Below, piece by piece: positions 2,144 through 45,042 of a stretch of 60,468 nucleotides of DNA. This stretch comes from an uncultured Candidatus Saccharibacteria bacterium (GTDB lineage Bacteria > Patescibacteriota > Dojkabacteria > SC72), in the NCBI GenBank assembly GCA_964403155.1, contig CAYOEG010000004.1, positions 1 to 60,468 on the forward strand, in the 5' to 3' direction. Below the pieces are notes generated by a model, which saw only the letters and a program-made list of their open reading frames with translations, had not been told where the DNA came from and made no database searches. The first letter of the stretch is position 1; every line of letters begins with the position of its first letter. The translations under genes and the position numbers were made by a program.

Positions 2144-2995
2144 ATGTCAGTAAAATCATTCAAACCAAAAACTTCGACATTAAGAGGTACAAAATTAGGA
2201 GATAGGTCTGGCTTGGAAAAGAAAAAGGGTCCAAGAAGTTTAACTATTGCTAAGCAACAGAAATCTGGAAGAAATAGCCAGGGTAAAATAACTGTTAGAC
2301 ACAGAGGTGGAGGATTTAAGAGAAGAATCAGGGTTGTTGATTTTAAGAGGGACAAATATGGCGTACCTGCAAAGGTAGAAGGATTCTACTTCGATCCTAA
2401 CAGGACAGCATTCTTAGCACTCTTACAGTATGCAGATGGAGACAAGAGATATATAATTGCTCCTCGTGGAATTAATGTTGGTGATACATTAGTATCTGGA
2501 GAACAGGTAGATGTATTGCCAGGGAATGCCATGAAGATTAAGAATATACCTTCAGGAACATCTGTACATTGTGTAGAGAGTATTCCTGGAAAAGGTGCAG
2601 CATTTGGAAGATCTGCTGGCCAATTGATTGTTGTTCAAGGTATAGATCCTACTGGAAACTTTGTTCAGGTTAAAATGCCTTCCGGAGAGATTAGATTGAT
2701 CTATGCGGATTGTATGGCAACTATTGGACAGGTAGGAAATGAAGATAAAGTAAATGTAAAACTTGGAAAAGCAGGAAGAAAGAGAAACTTAGGATGGAGA
2801 CCAACAGTAAGAGGTATGGCAATGCACGCAGTTGAGCATCCACACGGTGGTGGTGAAGGTAAAGGTGTTATCGGTGGTGCTGCTAAGGATATTTGGGGCA
2901 ACAGAGTTGGAAGAAGAACAAGAGATAACAAGAGAACTGAGAAGTTTATCATTAAGCGAAGAAGGACTAAGAATAGACCTTTCGCTAAGAAATAA
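2144..2995 (+). CDS. rplB: 50S ribosomal protein L2
   Basis: 283 aa with the uL2 signatures GRNSQGKITVRHRGGG and MHAVEHPHGGGEGK. Confidence 0.96.
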   Translation: MSVKSFKPKTSTLRGTKLGDRSGLEKKKGPRSLTIAKQQKSGRNSQGKITVRHRGGGFKRRIRVVDFKRDKYGVPAKVEGFYFDPNRTAFLALLQYADGDKRYIIAPRGINVGDTLVSGEQVDVLPGNAMKIKNIPSGTSVHCVESIPGKGAAFGRSAGQLIVVQGIDPTGNFVQVKMPSGEIRLIYADCMATIGQVGNEDKVNVKLGKAGRKRNLGWRPTVRGMAMHAVEHPHGGGEGKGVIGGAAKDIWGNRVGRRTRDNKRTEKFIIKRRRTKNRPFAKK

Positions 2996-3676: not shown

Positions 3677-4324
3677 ATGGGAAGAAAGGTTAATGCAAAT
3701 GCAATTAGAATAGGGATAAATAAGACTTGGGATTCTGTTTGGTATGCAAGCAAGACCCAGTTTCCTAAGATTTTTGCACAGGACCTAAAAATTGAAAAGA
3801 AGGTAAGAGATACAATGAAAGATTCTGGCGTAGATCAAGTAAAAATAATGAGATCTGCAAACAAGATTGAAGTTGTAGCTAATGTTGCAAGACCAGGTGT
3901 TGCTATTGGTAGAGGTGGAGAAGGAATTGATAAATTGCAAAAAGAACTTAAGAGAATGGCAAAGGCGGATGTTGAGGTTAAGATAAGAGAAGTAAAGAAA
4001 GCTGATATTTCCTCAAGAATAATCGCAAGAACAATTGCAGAAGGTATTGAAAGAAGACAACCATCCAAGCTTTTGATGATGAGTGCGAAAGAGAAAGCAA
4101 TGATGGCAGGAGCAAAAGGTTTGAAAATATGGGTATCTGGAAGAATCAATGGTGCTAGCCAAGCAAGAACAGTAAAGGTAAGTGCAGGAACAGTACCAGC
4201 ACAGACTTTGAAAGCAGATGTTGATTTTGCTATGGATACAGCAAAGACATTGGATGCAGGATTGATGGGTATTAAGGTATGGGTTTACAAGGGTAATAAA
4301 TCTGAAGTTACAGAAGAAGAATAA
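3677..4324 (+). CDS. rpsC: 30S ribosomal protein S3
   Basis: 215 aa. GRKVNANAIRIG at the N-terminus and the KH motif GVAIGRGGEGIDKL. Confidence 0.95.
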   Translation: MGRKVNANAIRIGINKTWDSVWYASKTQFPKIFAQDLKIEKKVRDTMKDSGVDQVKIMRSANKIEVVANVARPGVAIGRGGEGIDKLQKELKRMAKADVEVKIREVKKADISSRIIARTIAEGIERRQPSKLLMMSAKEKAMMAGAKGLKIWVSGRINGASQARTVKVSAGTVPAQTLKADVDFAMDTAKTLDAGLMGIKVWVYKGNKSEVTEEE

Positions 4325-11567: not shown

Positions 11568-11642
11568 ATAATCGAAATATTTGTTATTCTATCCCTGTTC
11601 CGTTGTGTCTCACGAGAATATCTACAGAATTAGCATTTTCTG

Positions 11643-11671
11643 TTGAAAGGATGCTCTTCTTTTGATATAAT
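11643..11671 (+). promoter_or_regulatory. Sigma70-type promoter upstream of infA
   Basis: TTGAAA (11643-11648), a 17-nt spacer and TATAAT (11666-11671) with an extended TG at 11663-11664. It lies ~34 nt upstream of the infA ATG. Confidence 0.55.
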
Positions 11672-11704
11672 TCTTGGGATTCATTTACATAGAAAGACTA
11701 TAAT

Positions 11705-27505: not shown

Positions 27506-27580
27506 GCCGCCATCGTCTAACGGTTAGGACATATGATTCTCAATCATACAATCGGAGTCCGATTCTCCGTGGCGGTACCA
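27506..27580 (+). tRNA. tRNA-Glu (anticodon CUC), CCA encoded
   Basis: Hand fold: GCCGCCA-TC-GTCT-AACGGTTA-GGAC-A-TATGA-TTCTCAA-TCATA-CAAT-CGGAG-TCCGATT-CTCCG-TGGCGGT-A-CCA. There are two oddities: a G1:U72 wobble and C in place of U at T-loop position 55. Confidence 0.8.
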
Positions 27581-27621: not shown

Positions 27622-28266
27622 ATGATTAAATTTGATATCATCACAATCTTCCCAAACATTGTAGAAGAATATATAAACACAGGAATAGTAGGAACTGCAA
27701 AAGGAAAGGGAATTGTAGAAATAAATATCCATGATTTAAGGAAATGGACAACGGATAATCATAAAACCGTAGATGATACTCCCTGTGGAGGTGGACCAGG
27801 AATGGTTCTAAAGATAGAACCAATCTATGCTGCAATCCAAGAGTTGAAAAAAGAAAATACCATAGTAGCAATTACTACACCAAAAGGGCATAAGATAGTT
27901 CAGAAAGATTTTAAAGAATTCTCAGAAAACAGTGATCTGCATATGATTATACTTTGTGGAAGGTACGAAGGATTCGACCAAAGAATACATGACAATTTGG
28001 TTGATTATGAATTCTCAATAGGTGACTACGTATTATCCGGAGGAGAATTAGCATCTCTTGTCCTAGTAGACGGGATTACTAGGCTATTACCAGGAGTCTT
28101 AGGTAATGAAGAATCTCTCGCAGATGAATCATTCAATGATGGTGCTACATTAGACTATCCTCAATATACCAGACCCATCGAATTCAATGGATGGAAGGTT
28201 CCAGAAATACTCTTAACAGGTGATCATGAAAAAATTAAAAAATGGAGAGAGTCGCAGAGGGGGTAG
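27622..28266 (+). CDS. trmD: tRNA (guanine37-N1)-methyltransferase
   Basis: 214 aa. IKFDIITIFPN...DDTPCGGGPGMVLK...CGRYEGFDQR...SIGDYVLSGGELA is typical TrmD. Confidence 0.92.
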   Translation: MIKFDIITIFPNIVEEYINTGIVGTAKGKGIVEINIHDLRKWTTDNHKTVDDTPCGGGPGMVLKIEPIYAAIQELKKENTIVAITTPKGHKIVQKDFKEFSENSDLHMIILCGRYEGFDQRIHDNLVDYEFSIGDYVLSGGELASLVLVDGITRLLPGVLGNEESLADESFNDGATLDYPQYTRPIEFNGWKVPEILLTGDHEKIKKWRESQRG

Positions 28267-30199: not shown

Positions 30200-31744
30200 A
30201 TGGAAGATACGCAAAGAAGTGATCTGCTCGGACAAAGACAAGTAAGATTAGACAAACTCGCAGAGCTTAAGAAGTTGGGTGTAGATCCATATCCAGCAAA
30301 GTCATACAGAAATTATTCTAATGGAGAGGTATTAAATAAATTCGGGGAATTTGAGAACAATGAGGTATGTTTAGCTGGTAGAATCACAGCATGGAGAGAG
30401 CATGGGAAATTGGTTTTTGGGAATATTCTTGATCAAAGTGGAAGTATTCAGTTGATGATTAGAGAAGCTGATTTAGTTGAGGATCTTCAAAAAGGATACT
30501 TAGGTTGGGACAAGCTATACCTTCTGGATCTTGCAGATTTCGTTGAATTGTATGGAACGATAGGGAAAACAAGGACGGGGGAAATTACCATTATGGTTAA
30601 GAATGTAAGACTTTTAACCAAAGCCTTGAGACCAATTCCACGAAAATTAGAAAACAAAGAGCAGATATTTAGGAGAAGATATTTGGATTTAGTGGTAGAT
30701 AATGAATCATTAAAGCTTTTTGAAAGGAAAGCGAAATTCTGGCAGGTACAGAGAGATTTTCTTAGAGATCATGGCTTTATGGAAGTAGAGGTGCCTGTGT
30801 TGGAAGCCGTAACTGGTGGTGCGGATGCTGCACCATTCATTACACATCATAATGCTTTGGATCAAGATTTCTATCTTAGAATCTCTACAGAACTGTATCA
30901 AAAGAGATTGATAGGTGGAGGTTATGAAAAGATATTTACATTAGGACCAAACTTCAGAAATGAAGGTATGGATGACGAGCATTTACAGGAATACTATCAG
31001 TTGGAATGGTATTGGGGTTATGCTAACTACAAAGATAATATGCAGTTGGTGCATGATCTATTCTTAGAAATTGCAAACAAGGTATATGGCAAAACTCAAT
31101 TTACAACAAGGGGACATACTTTTGATTTGGCGGATGAGTGGAAAGAAATTGACTATACTTCTGTCATTAAGGAGAGATTTGATATTGATATCTTTAATGA
31201 TTCTGAAGAGAAGATGTTGGGTGTGATTAAGGATAACAATATTGAGATGGGTGGAGAAGTGAATAGAAATAGGATGATTGATACTTTGTGGAAAGCAATT
31301 AGAGCTACTATCTCCGGTCCTGCTTTCTTGGTTAATCAGCCTAAGTTTGTTTCTCCTTTAGCAAAATCGCATCAAGATAATCCTGATTTAACAGAGAGAT
31401 TCCAGGTAGTTATCGCGGGTAGTGAACTAGGTAACGGTTATTCTGAAATCAATGATCCTCAAGATCAATTGGATAGGTTCTTGGAGCAGCAGGCTATGAG
31501 GGATAGTGGTGATTCCGAAGCTCAGATGTTGGATATTGATTTTGTAGAGATGTTAGAATATGGTATGCCTCCTGTAAGTGGTTATGGCCAGAGTGAGAGA
31601 ATTTTCTGGTTCTTAGAAGATATTTCTGGTAGAGAAGGTACTTTCTTCCCACAGATGAGGGTAGAGGTAGAGAATACTACAAAACAGATATACAAGGACA
31701 AGGCCAGATTTAAGGAGAATATTAAAAAGGAAGAGAAGAAATAA
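30200..31744 (+). CDS. lysS: Lysine--tRNA ligase, class II
   Basis: 514 aa with an OB anticodon-binding domain. Class II core: FMEVEVPVLE..GGADAAPF, YLRISTELYQKRL, FRNEGMD, ELGNGYSEINDP and PPVSGYGQSERI. Confidence 0.92.
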   Translation: MEDTQRSDLLGQRQVRLDKLAELKKLGVDPYPAKSYRNYSNGEVLNKFGEFENNEVCLAGRITAWREHGKLVFGNILDQSGSIQLMIREADLVEDLQKGYLGWDKLYLLDLADFVELYGTIGKTRTGEITIMVKNVRLLTKALRPIPRKLENKEQIFRRRYLDLVVDNESLKLFERKAKFWQVQRDFLRDHGFMEVEVPVLEAVTGGADAAPFITHHNALDQDFYLRISTELYQKRLIGGGYEKIFTLGPNFRNEGMDDEHLQEYYQLEWYWGYANYKDNMQLVHDLFLEIANKVYGKTQFTTRGHTFDLADEWKEIDYTSVIKERFDIDIFNDSEEKMLGVIKDNNIEMGGEVNRNRMIDTLWKAIRATISGPAFLVNQPKFVSPLAKSHQDNPDLTERFQVVIAGSELGNGYSEINDPQDQLDRFLEQQAMRDSGDSEAQMLDIDFVEMLEYGMPPVSGYGQSERIFWFLEDISGREGTFFPQMRVEVENTTKQIYKDKARFKENIKKEEKK

Positions 31745-31754
31745 TTATTGTAAT

Positions 31755-31800
31755 TAAAAAGGCCAACCCTCGAGAATATATTGCTATCTGAGGGTTGGCC
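31755..31800 (-). terminator. Intrinsic terminator oriented for the minus strand (ends the GC-rich RNA unit; may also stop lysS)
   Basis: A perfect 11-bp stem pairs GGCCAACCCTC (31761-31771) with GAGGGTTGGCC (31790-31800). On the minus strand the hairpin is followed by TTTTT (complement of the A-run at 31756-31760). On the plus strand no U-tract follows. Confidence 0.7.
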
Positions 31801-32014
31801 CATCTGAACCGTCTCTGTCGAGGCAAAATTTCCCCAGAATTTTGTTGATCAGCTCCGATTCAAATGTCTTTGTTTCCATACAGGTGGTTATAGTGCGGAT
31901 CATCCACAAAGTATGAAAACCATTGTTCTTACTGCAACCATATTGCTCCAATGCATTGATCCTTGTTGAAGAAGACAACGGTCTCCCATTGGCAGGCTTT
32001 ATGGTTTGATATTT

Positions 32015-32110
32015 ACTACACCCGATGGGAATTGAACCCACATATAGGGGAATGAGCCCCATACCTCACCTAGCGAGTGCAGGCAGATGCCGCGCACGGC
32101 GTTGTGTAGC
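32015..32110 (-). other. 96-nt tRNA-like domain inside the GC-rich unit
   Basis: Read on the minus strand. The closing stem is GCTACAC/GTGTAGT (7 bp, one G:U). Hairpin GCCG-TGCG-CGGC is present. The D-arm-like element is CTC-GCTAGGT-GAG. Hairpin TGGGG-CTCATTC-CCCTA has CAU at the anticodon position. The T-arm is GTGGG-TTCAATT-CCCAT. It is not a canonical cloverleaf: there are ~21 extra nt after the 5' strand and 3 extra nt (CGG) before the 3' strand. Confidence 0.3.
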
Positions 32111-32161
32111 GACACCCTAATATTTTATTTTAATGAACAAAAAAAACTGTTAGAACAGGAA

Positions 32162-32190
32162 ATTATAGTATTTGTATGATTATAGGTCAA
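32162..32190 (-). promoter_or_regulatory. Promoter cassette copy A (drives the GC-rich RNA unit)
   Basis: On the minus strand, TTGACC (32190-32185), a 17-nt spacer and TATAAT (32167-32162). It is part of a 34-nt direct repeat with copy B and overlaps the stop codon of the acidic ORF. Confidence 0.55.
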
Positions 32191-32896
32191 TGACAGCAAA
32201 GGGGTCATTCTCTTCATTCTCACAAATCCTGATGGAAGGTAAATGGGTGATTTGTTTAGAGAAATCTTCGTAATCAATAATACCTGTCGAAAATTTGTTT
32301 AAAATTTCTATTGCCAATTTGTCATTATTGAAAATTCCACTCCAAATTTCTTCCATATGATCGAAGGTAGCTTTTAAACGAAGTTTTAAATACTCTGCAA
32401 GGATTAGGTTTGGTGATGTGAGTATAGTTTTAGTATCAGCTTTTTTGTCATCTTCCTGAGTTTCAAGTATCTTGGGGTTCAAACTTATAAATTCTGCTTC
32501 GTCTTTATCAATTCCCAAATTTTCAAGTTTAAGCTCAAGGGTTTCTATTGGACGAAGTAATTGAATAATACTCCCGACTTTACGGCATGAAATATCTCTT
32601 ATTTCAGAAACAATTTGATTTAAAGTTTTCTCTACCGCAGTTGTATTTATATATGACATGTCTCCGAGAGTTTCGATATTTATAGATATTTCTGGAAACT
32701 GGGGAGCCATTTCATTCACAAAATCGTAACCGTTGAAAGAATCGACTTCACCACCATTGATATTGGGAGCAGAAGAACTATCGATTTTTGAAAGAAGTAT
32801 ATTTAAATCTGCAATTTCATCATCAGCTTTTCCGAATGCATTGGTGACTTCATCAGGAAGTGATTCTTCAAGGTATGTTATTTCTCCTTCGGACAT
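32180..32896 (-). CDS. Highly acidic hypothetical protein (238 aa), probably leaderless
   Basis: An uninterrupted 238-codon ORF with 47 D/E versus 20 K/R by hand count. I recognise no motif. A consensus-like promoter ends 8 nt upstream of the ATG and there is no SD. Confidence 0.55.
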   Translation of the reverse strand: MSEGEITYLEESLPDEVTNAFGKADDEIADLNILLSKIDSSSAPNINGGEVDSFNGYDFVNEMAPQFPEISINIETLGDMSYINTTAVEKTLNQIVSEIRDISCRKVGSIIQLLRPIETLELKLENLGIDKDEAEFISLNPKILETQEDDKKADTKTILTSPNLILAEYLKLRLKATFDHMEEIWSGIFNNDKLAIEILNKFSTGIIDYEDFSKQITHLPSIRICENEENDPFAVIDL

Positions 32897-32904
32897 GATA
32901 AGAA

Positions 32905-32933
32905 ATTATAGTATTTGTGTGATTATAGGGCAA
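32905..32933 (-). promoter_or_regulatory. Promoter cassette copy B (drives the acidic ORF)
   Basis: On the minus strand, TTGCCC (32933-32928), a 17-nt spacer and TATAAT (32910-32905). The ATG lies at 32896-32894. Confidence 0.55.
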
Positions 32934-32942
32934 TAGAAATTC

Positions 32943-32998
32943 CTCGACCCTCATCTTTAACAAATTACCTCTAAAGGTAAAAAAAGATGAGGGCCGAG
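32943..32998 (-). other. Long compound hairpin downstream of tRNA(CAG)
   Basis: A 16-bp stem pairs 32943-32958 with 32983-32998, and an inner 5-bp hairpin TACCT-TTAG-AGGTA is present. The single non-Watson-Crick position is an A:C mismatch in plus-strand RNA but a G:U pair in minus-strand RNA, which argues for a minus-strand function. No U-tract follows. Confidence 0.5.
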
Positions 32999-33000
32999 TT

Positions 33001-33037
33001 GAATTGGCGAGAGTGAGGGGGGCACCCTAACCAATTC
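33001..33037 (-). other. Hairpin immediately 3' of tRNA(CAG)
   Basis: GAATTGG (33001-33007) pairs with CCAATTC (33031-33037) across a 23-nt G/C-rich loop. It begins 3 nt after the tRNA 3' end. Confidence 0.4.
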
Positions 33038-33039
33038 TA

Positions 33040-33114
33040 GGCGAGCGAGACAGGATTCGAACCTGTGGTTTCAAGCCTCTGAAGCTTGCGTCATGTCCAC
33101 TTGACTACTCGCTC
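33040..33114 (-). tRNA. Class-I tRNA with anticodon CAG (isotype unresolved; not a canonical tRNA-Leu)
   Basis: Hand fold of the minus strand: GAGCGAG-TA-GTCA-AGTGGACA-TGAC-G-CAAGC-TTCAGAG-GCTTG-AAACC-ACAGG-TTCGAAT-CCTGT-CTCGCTC-G-CC. All stems are perfect and the universal tRNA positions are present. The variable loop is 5 nt, position 37 is A and the discriminator is G73. Confidence 0.8.
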
Positions 33115-33264
33115 TAGCGAGATAAGAAGAGGAAAGATGGTTTTAACAACCAATCCAGGTATGAAGTATACTAATCACTTTTTTGCTGGTTACTGGTGTG
33201 GCCAGAGCTCTCTCTTTTTCTGAATGTCTTCAGTTACTTATCTCTCTTTAAAAGAACAGGAGCA

Positions 33265-33293
33265 ATTTTACCAAATAATATATTATAGGTCAA
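33265..33293 (-). promoter_or_regulatory. Promoter cassette copy C (candidate promoter of the tRNA(CAG) unit)
   Basis: On the minus strand, TTGACC (33293-33288), a 17-nt spacer and TAAAAT (33270-33265). It shares the 13-mer ATTGACCTATAAT with copy A. It implies a ~140-nt leader before the tRNA. Confidence 0.45.
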
Positions 33294-33331
33294 TATCCTT
33301 TAATATATATATTTCTGATATCATTAATGAT

Positions 33332-33691
33332 ATGGAATCCATATCAGATATATTAAAAAATCTAAAACCTCAATCAGAAGAAAAAAAACAACCTCAACCA
33401 GAACTCTTCAACATGGATGAAATAAAGGATAATCCCAAGAGAATGTTTGGAGACAAACATAAATATATCTCTACTGAATATCAAGTATATGGGCTTCGTC
33501 TAGCAGGCAAATTGGGAGACACAAAGCGAACAACAATGTATATAAAGTGGGCGAAAGAGAAACCGAGAGCAATCTTAGAAATGGCTTACAGCTTTACGAT
33601 AGACTATCCGAATGCAAAAGACAAAAGTAAGATATTTATGTGGAAAGTAAAAGAACTAGAAAATGAAAGAAAGAATAAAAAAGAAGAATAA
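33332..33691 (+). CDS. Small basic hypothetical protein
   Basis: The ORF track starts at 33224, but that N-terminal part overlaps the minus-strand promoter copy C and is low-complexity. ATG 33332 (MESISDILKN...) is preferred. I recognise no family. The ATG is embedded in the near-palindrome GATATCATTAATGATATG. Confidence 0.4.
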   Translation: MESISDILKNLKPQSEEKKQPQPELFNMDEIKDNPKRMFGDKHKYISTEYQVYGLRLAGKLGDTKRTTMYIKWAKEKPRAILEMAYSFTIDYPNAKDKSKIFMWKVKELENERKNKKEE

Positions 33692-44965: not shown

Positions 44966-45042
44966 CGGGGCGTAGTTCAGATGGCTAGAGCGCTTGCATG
45001 GGGTGCAAGAGGTCGCACGTTCAAGTCGTGTCGCCCCGACCA
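44966..45042 (+). tRNA. tRNA-Pro (anticodon GGG), CCA encoded
   Basis: Hand fold: CGGGGCG-TA-GTTC-AGATGGCTA-GAGC-G-CTTGC-ATGGGGT-GCAAG-AGGTC-GCACG-TTCAAGT-CGTGT-CGCCCCG-A-CCA. C1:G72, G37 and A73 are typical for bacterial tRNA-Pro. Confidence 0.9.

Follow-up and report, generated by a model that had tools for sequence, protein, structure and literature searches.

The window studied here is a stretch of 60,468 nucleotides from an uncultured Candidatus Saccharibacteria bacterium (GTDB lineage Bacteria; Patescibacteriota; Dojkabacteria; SC72), namely positions 1 to 60,468 of contig CAYOEG010000004.1 in assembly GCA_964403155.1. Its GC content is about 0.35, its open reading frames (ORFs) are intact under table 11, and the best homologs of its lysyl-tRNA synthetase (LysRS) are named Candidatus Dojkabacteria, within the Candidate Phyla Radiation (CPR/Patescibacteria). 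The subject of this work is a class-I tRNA gene with the anticodon CAG on the minus strand at 33040-33114, hereafter tRNA(CAG). It lies in a strain-variable island of about 1.5 kb (31739-33246), situated between lysS (30200-31744) and an operon that comprises a 155-aa ORF and the ABC-2 permeases. The coordinates of the island are those at which blastn homology to the related loci L049-L052, L255 and L256 breaks, and homology resumes at 33247. The surrounding gene order is kept in close relatives and reads trmD, greA, glyS, lysS, the variable stretch, a small ORF, two ABC-2 permeases, an NrnA-like gene, serS and miaA; the trmD gene, already claimed for this window in an earlier note on the same DNA, was located at 27622-28266. 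The island itself consists of three minus-strand units, each of which stands behind a sigma70-like promoter within a 33-nt repeat. The corresponding promoter-like motif TTGNCCTATAAT occurs three times in the 60 kb, always inside the island.

ARAGORN labels 33040-33114 (-) as tRNA-Leu(cag). The mature body, 33042-33114 (-), is matched by the Rfam tRNA family RF00005 with 65.2 bits (E 6e-12), well above the gathering score of 29 and also above the 58.2 bits obtained for the tRNA-Glu(CUC) gene of the same window. On the minus strand the gene reads GAGCGAG-TA-GTCA-AGTGGACA-TGAC-G-CAAGC-TTCAGAG-GCTTG-AAACC-ACAGG-TTCGAAT-CCTGT-CTCGCTC-G, followed by CCT. All 21 pairs of the stems are Watson-Crick, and the cloverleaf carries the conserved nucleotides that support the tertiary fold (U8, A14, G18G19, A21, G26, U33, T54-T55-C56, A58, G53:C61 and G15:C48). 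The variable loop is 5 nt long (AAACC), and A37 and the discriminator G73 are present, in exact agreement with the parse given in the earlier note. Since the 3' end reads G-CCT, CCA is not encoded in tRNA(CAG), whereas it is encoded in both housekeeping tRNAs of the window, tRNA-Glu(CUC) and tRNA-Pro(GGG). Neither broken stems nor lost invariant nucleotides, the marks of a tRNA pseudogene, were found in the window copy. The gene is identical in L001 and L002. Two independent Logan assemblies from other runs, SRR8925774 and SRR8925775, match the window exactly at 31674-33317 and 31709-33317, respectively, and thereby cover tRNA(CAG) together with both island junctions. A sequencing or assembly error at position 35, which the earlier note had raised as a concern, is thus ruled out, and A35 stands.

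The tRNA gene is the centre of the first unit of the island. Its promoter P1 (33265-33293, minus strand), recognized in a promoter scan, has the near-consensus form TTGACC-17-TAAAAT with a TG extension, lies about 145 nt upstream of the tRNA and represents the third copy of the 33-nt repeat (67% identical); it is kept in the relatives L255, L051 and L258. Between P1 and the tRNA runs a structured 5' leader of 145 nt (33115-33258, minus strand), and the fold of leader, tRNA and trailer taken together has a z-score of -5.1. The trailer contains two hairpins on the minus strand, both recovered in the consensus fold of the window and L258. The first, H1 (33001-33037), has a 14-bp stem with the C-rich apical loop CCCCCCU, and the second, H2 (32943-32998), is long and terminator-like and corresponds to inverted repeat I5. 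As a separate observation, a short direct repeat, CTAGAG / CTAGAA, flanks tRNA(CAG) on the minus strand at 33112-33117, the junction of leader and position 1, and at 33034-33039, just past the discriminator; matching sites are present in L258. The sequence of the 3' acceptor strand also recurs in the leader, as CUCGCU at positions -7 to -2. Both repeats could be a signature of recombination or of processing. Directly upstream of P1 lies an AT-rich palindrome at 33309-33353 (ATATTTCTGATAT ... ATATCAGATATAT), within which both Logan contigs end, at 33317.

The most informative comparison is that with L258, a relative whose LysRS is 91% identical and which carries behind P1 a canonical tRNA (70.6 bits) that differs from tRNA(CAG) in its anticodon, UUC, and in its discriminator, A. 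The acceptor stem is the same in both tRNAs in 14 of 14 nucleotides (GAGCGAG/CTCGCTC). Identity is likewise 100% over the last 16 nt of the leader (33115-33130, TCTTCTTATCTCGCTA) and 91% over the trailer, but only 62% in mid-leader. In contrast, the core of the tRNA (positions 8-65) is only 60% identical (35/58), compared with 124 matches and 9 mismatches in the flanks (Fisher p = 1e-7). Despite this divergence, both tRNAs form all 21 stem pairs, of which five changed on both sides and one on one side. The same holds for the trailer, where none of the 33 pairs of the two hairpins is broken between the window and L258, and two pairs of H1 are altered on one side only. Between these two strains, then, the fold, the acceptor stem and the flanks are conserved, and the anticodon and the body are not.

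The other relatives show a range of states at the same position. In L255 (LysRS 94%), a well-folded tRNA-like gene of 45.8 bits lies behind P1 at 2202-2276 (-), with the loop UAGGUAA (GGU, A33) and an encoded A73-CCA. A likewise well-folded tRNA-like gene of 47.8 bits occupies this position in L051/L052 (LysRS 93%; 11628-11699 (-) in L051, without U8), with the loop CGGCCAU (GCC, G33) and again an encoded A73-CCA. ARAGORN gave no call on the tRNA-like genes of L255 and L051. L050 and five contigs from other samples (LysRS 83-84%) carry a tRNA of 51-54 bits with an insertion of 53 or 54 nt in the anticodon loop (L050 11777-11901 (-); L259-L261 7771-7896; L262 5315-5440; L263 2351-2476). ARAGORN with the option -i reads this interrupted tRNA as tRNA-Leu(cag) with an intron at 33, although the inserted segment can be placed in several ways; its length falls well short of that of a group I intron. 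L049 (LysRS 89%) has no tRNA at the locus, and distant Dojkabacteria (LysRS 77%) are uninformative because the synteny downstream of lysS is gone. Thus, the closest relatives (LysRS 93-94%) lack tRNA(CAG) at the syntenic site, the boundaries of the island are sharp, and tRNA(CAG) is a strain-specific member of a modular variable array. Several relatives retain the remainder of the cloverleaf but have an anticodon loop that is specifically disabled. The earlier note had named decay in relatives as an argument against its reading, and the disrupted anticodon loops bear this argument out in part; the window copy is intact.

To assign an identity to the body of the tRNA, isotype hidden Markov models (HMMs) were built with the anticodon masked from the tRNAs of the fetched loci, excluding matches selected on the D-arm; these models are sequence-only and mostly phage-trained, so they are a rough substitute for the tRNAscan-SE isotype models. 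The two housekeeping tRNAs of the window served as controls and were both assigned correctly, tRNA-Glu(CUC) with Glu first at 44.1 bits (runner-up 24.4) and tRNA-Pro(GGG) with Pro first at 44.1 bits (runner-up 28.3). For tRNA(CAG), the models gave 28.5 bits for Gln, 25.0 for Pro, 24.4 for Val, 16.1 for Arg and 8.1 for class-I Leu, the last being 16th of 18 models. Gln comes out on top but leads Pro by 3.5 bits only, compared with 16-20 bits for the housekeeping controls. The body of tRNA(CAG) thus has no confident isotype in these models, and the Gln-like body suspected in the earlier note is no more than a marginal lean. The L258 tRNA behaves similarly: its body scores equally as Asp and Cys (37.5 bits each), and Glu, the isotype of its anticodon, ranks only sixth. 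With C11:G24 and a 5-nt variable loop it is unlike tRNA-Glu. The tRNA-Glu(CUC) of this clade has U11:A24, U13·G22 and a 4-nt variable loop, the element that GluRS recognizes by E. coli identity rules.

The traits of a canonical class-II tRNA-Leu, an arm of more than 10 nt, A73 and, for readers of CUN codons, G37, are all missing from tRNA(CAG); at position 37, the site methylated by TrmD, tRNA-Pro(GGG) of the window has G and tRNA(CAG) has A. Together with the low score of the class-I Leu model, this bears out the view of the earlier note that the gene is not an ordinary tRNA-Leu. The note had also likened the D-arm to Gln and Cys types, and the D-arm GTCAAGTGG is in fact common among Glu, Gln, His and Cys tRNAs. 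Among tRNA-Gln traits, G73 and G36 are present, but the first pair is G1:C72 rather than the weak U1:A72, and position 35 is A rather than U. The proposed origin from a tRNA-Gln(CUG) by a single U35A change is not supported, as the start of the acceptor stem (G1:C72/A2:U71), which is unlike tRNA-Gln, the marginal Gln score and the ortholog with UUC all speak against it. Another candidate was a tRNA-Arg(CCG) with a mutated anticodon. A loose link to a metagenomic tRNA-Arg(CCG) (L174) is given by A20, G73, a D-arm with one mismatch, G26 and, in the anticodon stem, four of the five nucleotides of its 5' strand. A20 and C35 are the major determinants of ArgRS by established E. coli identity rules; A20 is present, but position 35 is A rather than C, the Arg score is no higher than 16.1 bits and position 20 is U in the L258 ortholog, so that tRNA(CAG) does not fit this candidate. 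Known identity elements of the acceptor stem such as G3:U70 or G-1 are absent from tRNA(CAG), and its nearest neighbours among the 1,418 tRNAs of the fetched loci (best match 54/73) pointed to no informative isotype.

Leucine tRNAs of class-I shape do exist elsewhere. A scan for the loop and T-arm pattern found them in the tRNA arrays of huge phages, which hold full Leu sets (CAA, UAA, GAG, CAG and UAG; 74-77 nt each), and in 26 bacterial genomes, with hosts that include Actinoplanes, Catenulispora, Planobispora, Kofleriaceae and Clostridiales. The loci concerned are L004 (3035-3622), L005 (93-249 and 2090-2164), L006 (4550-4793), L008 (10187-10599) and L009-L048 (26/40 loci); L008 also holds short tRNA-Ser genes of 72-74 nt. 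In Streptomyces coelicolor, the type-I tRNA-Leu(CAA) is charged with leucine, and its A73G mutant retains 83% efficiency, so that A73 is dispensable there (PMC6614811). These tRNAs resemble tRNA(CAG) in having a Leu anticodon, in some cases CAG itself, a 5-nt variable loop and A37, and they show that LeuRS can take a class-I body and sometimes does not need A73. However, the family is defined by the D-arm signature CCAAC.GGCAGAG together with A73 and comes in sets with several anticodons, whereas the window tRNA has GTCAAGTGGACATGAC and G73 and stands alone. Given this different D-arm, G73 and the family HMM score of 8.1 bits, membership of tRNA(CAG) in the class-I tRNA-Leu family was rejected.

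The meaning of CUG was evaluated from the coding sequences. In line with the earlier remark that in-frame CTG is rare, CTG is the rarest Leu codon of the window, with 3.7 per 1000 codons and 3.9% of all Leu codons. When the CTG codons of 16 window genes were compared with three relatives lacking tRNA(CAG), 46 of the 68 aligned cells held Leu and a further 13 held I, M, V or F, and at these sites the relatives chiefly use the synonymous Leu codons TTA, TTG, CTA and CTT. CTG is not significantly depleted in the window relative to the relatives; those without an intact copy use it at 2.4-5.9 per 1000, at least as frequently as the window does, so another reader of CUG must exist in the clade. Taken together, the aligned positions and the codon usage indicate that CUG means leucine and is read as such with or without tRNA(CAG). 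A genome-wide reassignment of CUG, which the earlier note had thought unlikely, is therefore ruled out.

The other two units of the island differ in content. The second starts from P2 (32905-32933, minus strand), a sigma70-like site of the form TTGCCC-17-TATAAT in a repeat copy that is 94% identical to that of P3, and encodes ORF238 (32180-32896, minus strand), an acidic orphan protein situated between two copies of the 33-nt repeat with its own promoter. No Pfam, NCBIfam, PHROG or PADLOC match was found for ORF238, and no aminoacyl-tRNA synthetase or other domain. A single homolog, 85% identical, was found among 5.8 billion clusters. The AF2 model, of low confidence (pLDDT 55), predicts a mostly helical protein. 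ORF238 is not present in L255, L258 and L051. The third unit, behind P3 (32162-32190, minus strand; TTGACC-17-TATAAT, the reference copy of the repeat), is a structured non-coding RNA (31756-32155, minus strand; fold z-score -4.1) that ends at 31756-31800 in a strong hairpin followed by a T-run. It is conserved in L173 (769-912), L256 (4304-4709), L255 (1937-2000) and L258 (about 3700-3790); a 92-aa ORF at 31784-32062 is probably spurious. This RNA contains a tRNA-like element of about 64 nt without a D-arm (32017-32080), preceded by the invariant motif ACACAACGCCGUG, which the Rfam tRNA model scores at 19.8 bits in the window and at 34.7 bits in L255. Its acceptor and T stems covary between strains (G1·U72 to A1:U72; GUGGG/CCCAU to GCGAG/CUCGC), and its anticodon-like loop reads CUCAUU(C) in the window, UUUAGAC in L255 and UUAUGAC in L258. 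Apart from tRNA, no Rfam family was detected in the island, even at E values up to 10.

Two observations concern the housekeeping tRNAs elsewhere in the window. The T-loop of tRNA-Glu(CUC) (27506-27580 (+)) is UCCGAUU and thus has C at the universally conserved position 55, where the corresponding loops are UUCGAUC in L049 and UUCGAUU in L051; in this clade, tRNA-Glu(CUC) also has a G1·U72 pair and A73 instead of the usual G73. By eye, tRNA-Pro(GGG) (44966-45042 (+)) is canonical, with C1:G72, A73, G37 and an encoded CCA; it was called by ARAGORN and not by the Rfam scan at the gathering threshold.

Searches for further copies gave little. An exact-pattern scan for the anticodon loop and T-arm across 185,579 species genomes returned nothing beyond the class-I tRNA-Leu family, which is unrelated, and chance matches, no relative with CAG turned up when the metagenome collection was scanned for the exact D-arm and T-arm, and specific exact patterns found nothing in viral contigs; since these scans demand exact matches, they miss diverged relatives. 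Neither the island (blastn) nor ORF238 (tblastn) had a match in the phage collection. A phage origin of the island, considered as a candidate, is therefore unsupported, ORF238 also having no PHROG or PADLOC match. A literature search yielded no report of CPR tRNAs of this kind.

Because the fold and the flanks are conserved while the anticodon and the body vary, selection would seem to act on the tRNA shape and the flanking RNA rather than on decoding. We tentatively propose, with a probability of about 0.4, that tRNA(CAG) is an accessory RNA selected for its tRNA shape and not the decoder of CUG. It would form one cassette of a small strain-variable array, each cassette combining a promoter-like repeat with a small RNA or an ORF, in one Candidatus Dojkabacteria clade. 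From its own predicted sigma70-like promoter, a structured precursor of about 330 nt would be transcribed that comprises the leader, the tRNA and the two-hairpin trailer. As the comparison with L258 shows, selection holds on to the cloverleaf, an unaltered acceptor stem, the 16 leader nucleotides next to the tRNA and both hairpins of the trailer, and leaves the sequence of the body and the anticodon free. The tRNA shape may act as a handle or scaffold for processing by RNase P and RNase Z that releases or stabilizes the conserved flanking RNA; alternatively, it may be a ligand or decoy for a tRNA-binding factor. Any decoding of CUG by tRNA(CAG) would then be a side effect, with CUG remaining Leu through another tRNA. 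A working decoder seems hard to reconcile with the comparison to L258, since the path from UUC to CAG would lead through missense intermediates, and it is equally hard to reconcile with an identity carried by the shared frame, because in L258 that frame holds a Glu anticodon reading about 7% of codons.

Several points weigh against this proposal. The pattern of a conserved frame around a variable core is drawn from two sequences, the window and L258, and the core identity of 60% is close to the 62% of the middle of the leader, so the contrast may reflect constrained flanks and not an accelerated core. Furthermore, tRNA(CAG) shows all traits of translational competence, including a 7-nt loop, U33, a purine at position 37 and a perfect elbow. 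Nor is it obvious why a handle for processing should require that the sequence of the acceptor stem be invariant, and the function assigned to the trailer is putative.

If the gene did act in decoding after all, it might be a supplementary, atypical class-I tRNA-Leu that is charged by an anticodon-blind LeuRS and harmlessly helps to read the rare CUG. LeuRS in general disregards the anticodon, the leucylated S. coelicolor tRNA tolerates G73, class-I-shaped tRNA-Leu genes are frequent in huge-phage arrays and occur in bacteria, and the interrupted tRNA of the L050 lineage can also be read as CAG, although that reading depends on one of several intron placements. The missing signature of the class-I family and its near-bottom rank among the isotype models, A37 instead of G37, and the same-stem ortholog with UUC make this unlikely; a Leu identity borne by the frame would be very costly in that ortholog, given that, in the window as in its relatives, about 7% of codons are GAA or GAG. 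The canonical gene behind a promoter-like site could instead be a mistranslator, with a CAG-tolerant synthetase adding a residue other than Leu at a low level at CUG; ArgRS, by way of A20 and G73, and the Glu/Gln pathway would be the candidates. Such tRNAs are known in nature, as in Streptomyces (tRNAProX/ProRSx), and the body is not Leu-like, with Gln as the marginal best isotype and with the likeness to the tRNA-Arg(CCG) of L174 in the D-arm, G26 and the anticodon stem; because CUG is the rarest Leu codon, the damage would be limited. Yet ArgRS, GlnRS and GluRS all depend on position 35 by established identity rules, CTG is not depleted, and no dedicated synthetase paralog adjoins the gene (GlyRS, LysRS and SerRS are housekeeping enzymes that are also present in relatives without the tRNA). 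Moreover, were the identity determined by the shared frame, the UUC ortholog would cause mistranslation at about 7% of codons. We therefore consider mistranslation quite unlikely.

It is also improbable that the gene is a non-functional relic, an acquired or duplicated tRNA drifting at a dispensable locus with an accidental CAG. This view would account for the patchy distribution, for the purine 33, missing U8, large loop insertion or full loss seen in relatives, for a body that matches no isotype and for the lack of another copy in the pattern scans of the 185,579 species genomes and the metagenome collection. On the other hand, drift would not be expected to keep 21 of 21 pairs in both intact copies, five of them by two-sided changes, across a core divergence of 40%, nor to conserve the acceptor stem, the leader end and the trailer at 91-100% next to a middle leader at 62%; the promoter-like site is near consensus, and the damage in relatives is centred on the anticodon loop and spares the stems. 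A role as a non-ribosomal aminoacyl donor for cell-wall, lipid or peptide synthesis, with an identity given by the acceptor stem and an irrelevant anticodon, would fit the invariant acceptor stem and the freely varying anticodon. We judge it very improbable, as the discriminator is G in one ortholog and A in the other, the stem has no known identity element (G3:U70, G-1), a scan of 15 proteins from the island and nearby genes turned up no Fem-type enzyme, MprF, cyclodipeptide synthase or L/F-transferase, and ORF238 has no match and is absent beside the UUC ortholog. Finally, the locus might be an undescribed hypervariable tRNA cassette, in which the promoter, the leader end, the acceptor stem and the trailer hairpins are fixed, and the body and the anticodon change rapidly from strain to strain, by exchange or diversification. 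This is conceivable, if doubtful. Such cassettes could serve as switchable decoders or mistranslators, or as decoys or replacements against anticodon-targeting nucleases, and they would share the array with a second family, the tRNA-like RNAs without a D-arm.

In comparison with known systems, the pair formed by the window and L258 may be set beside the anticodon shifts and alloacceptor remolding described for eukaryotic nuclear genomes and mitochondria (PMC3923123, PMC4783518). There too, positional orthologs with conserved flanks carry anticodons for different amino acids. In those cases, however, one or two substitutions in the anticodon leave a near-identical body whose identity is re-set by the anticodon, whereas the tRNAs of the window and L258 differ in every base of the anticodon and in 40% of the core, share the acceptor stem and have bodies of which neither fits the isotype of its anticodon. 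The literature search found no bacterial or CPR case of a whole-anticodon exchange of this kind. To our knowledge, this would be, if the pattern holds, the first bacterial case in which positional tRNA orthologs keep the frame and the fold and swap the whole anticodon.

Isotype-mismatched or mistranslating tRNAs of bacteria include the Streptomyces tRNAProX/ProRSx pair, the allo-tRNAs and tRNA-Other of Bacillus cereus. tRNA(CAG), which is an accessory tRNA without a clear isotype, resembles them in being accessory and patchily distributed and in having an anticodon at odds with the identity of its body. It has no nearby synthetase paralog, no 8/4 or 9/3 architecture, no long arm and no T-box context, in contrast to these systems. 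A further parallel is offered by tRNA-linked RNAs such as the 3'ETS-leuZ sponge RNA of E. coli and the eukaryotic MALAT1-mascRNA, where a tRNA fold likewise lies inside a longer structured transcript; as in these, the flank may be released by RNase P or RNase Z. The bacterial tRNA-linked small RNAs use an ordinary housekeeping tRNA, whereas here the anticodon is not stable and the trailer is a putative functional RNA.

With regard to annotation, the label tRNA-Leu(CAG) should be treated with caution here because it derives from the anticodon alone. What is unusual at this locus is the evolutionary pattern; it is not a code change and not a demonstrated mistranslator. The promoter, leader, tRNA and trailer form a compact and directly testable candidate. 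Should further genomes show the same pattern, it would bear on the natural uncoupling of tRNA identity from the anticodon, on the tolerance of the reduced CPR translation systems for rogue tRNAs, and on the use of tRNA-shaped RNAs as processing modules or decoys.

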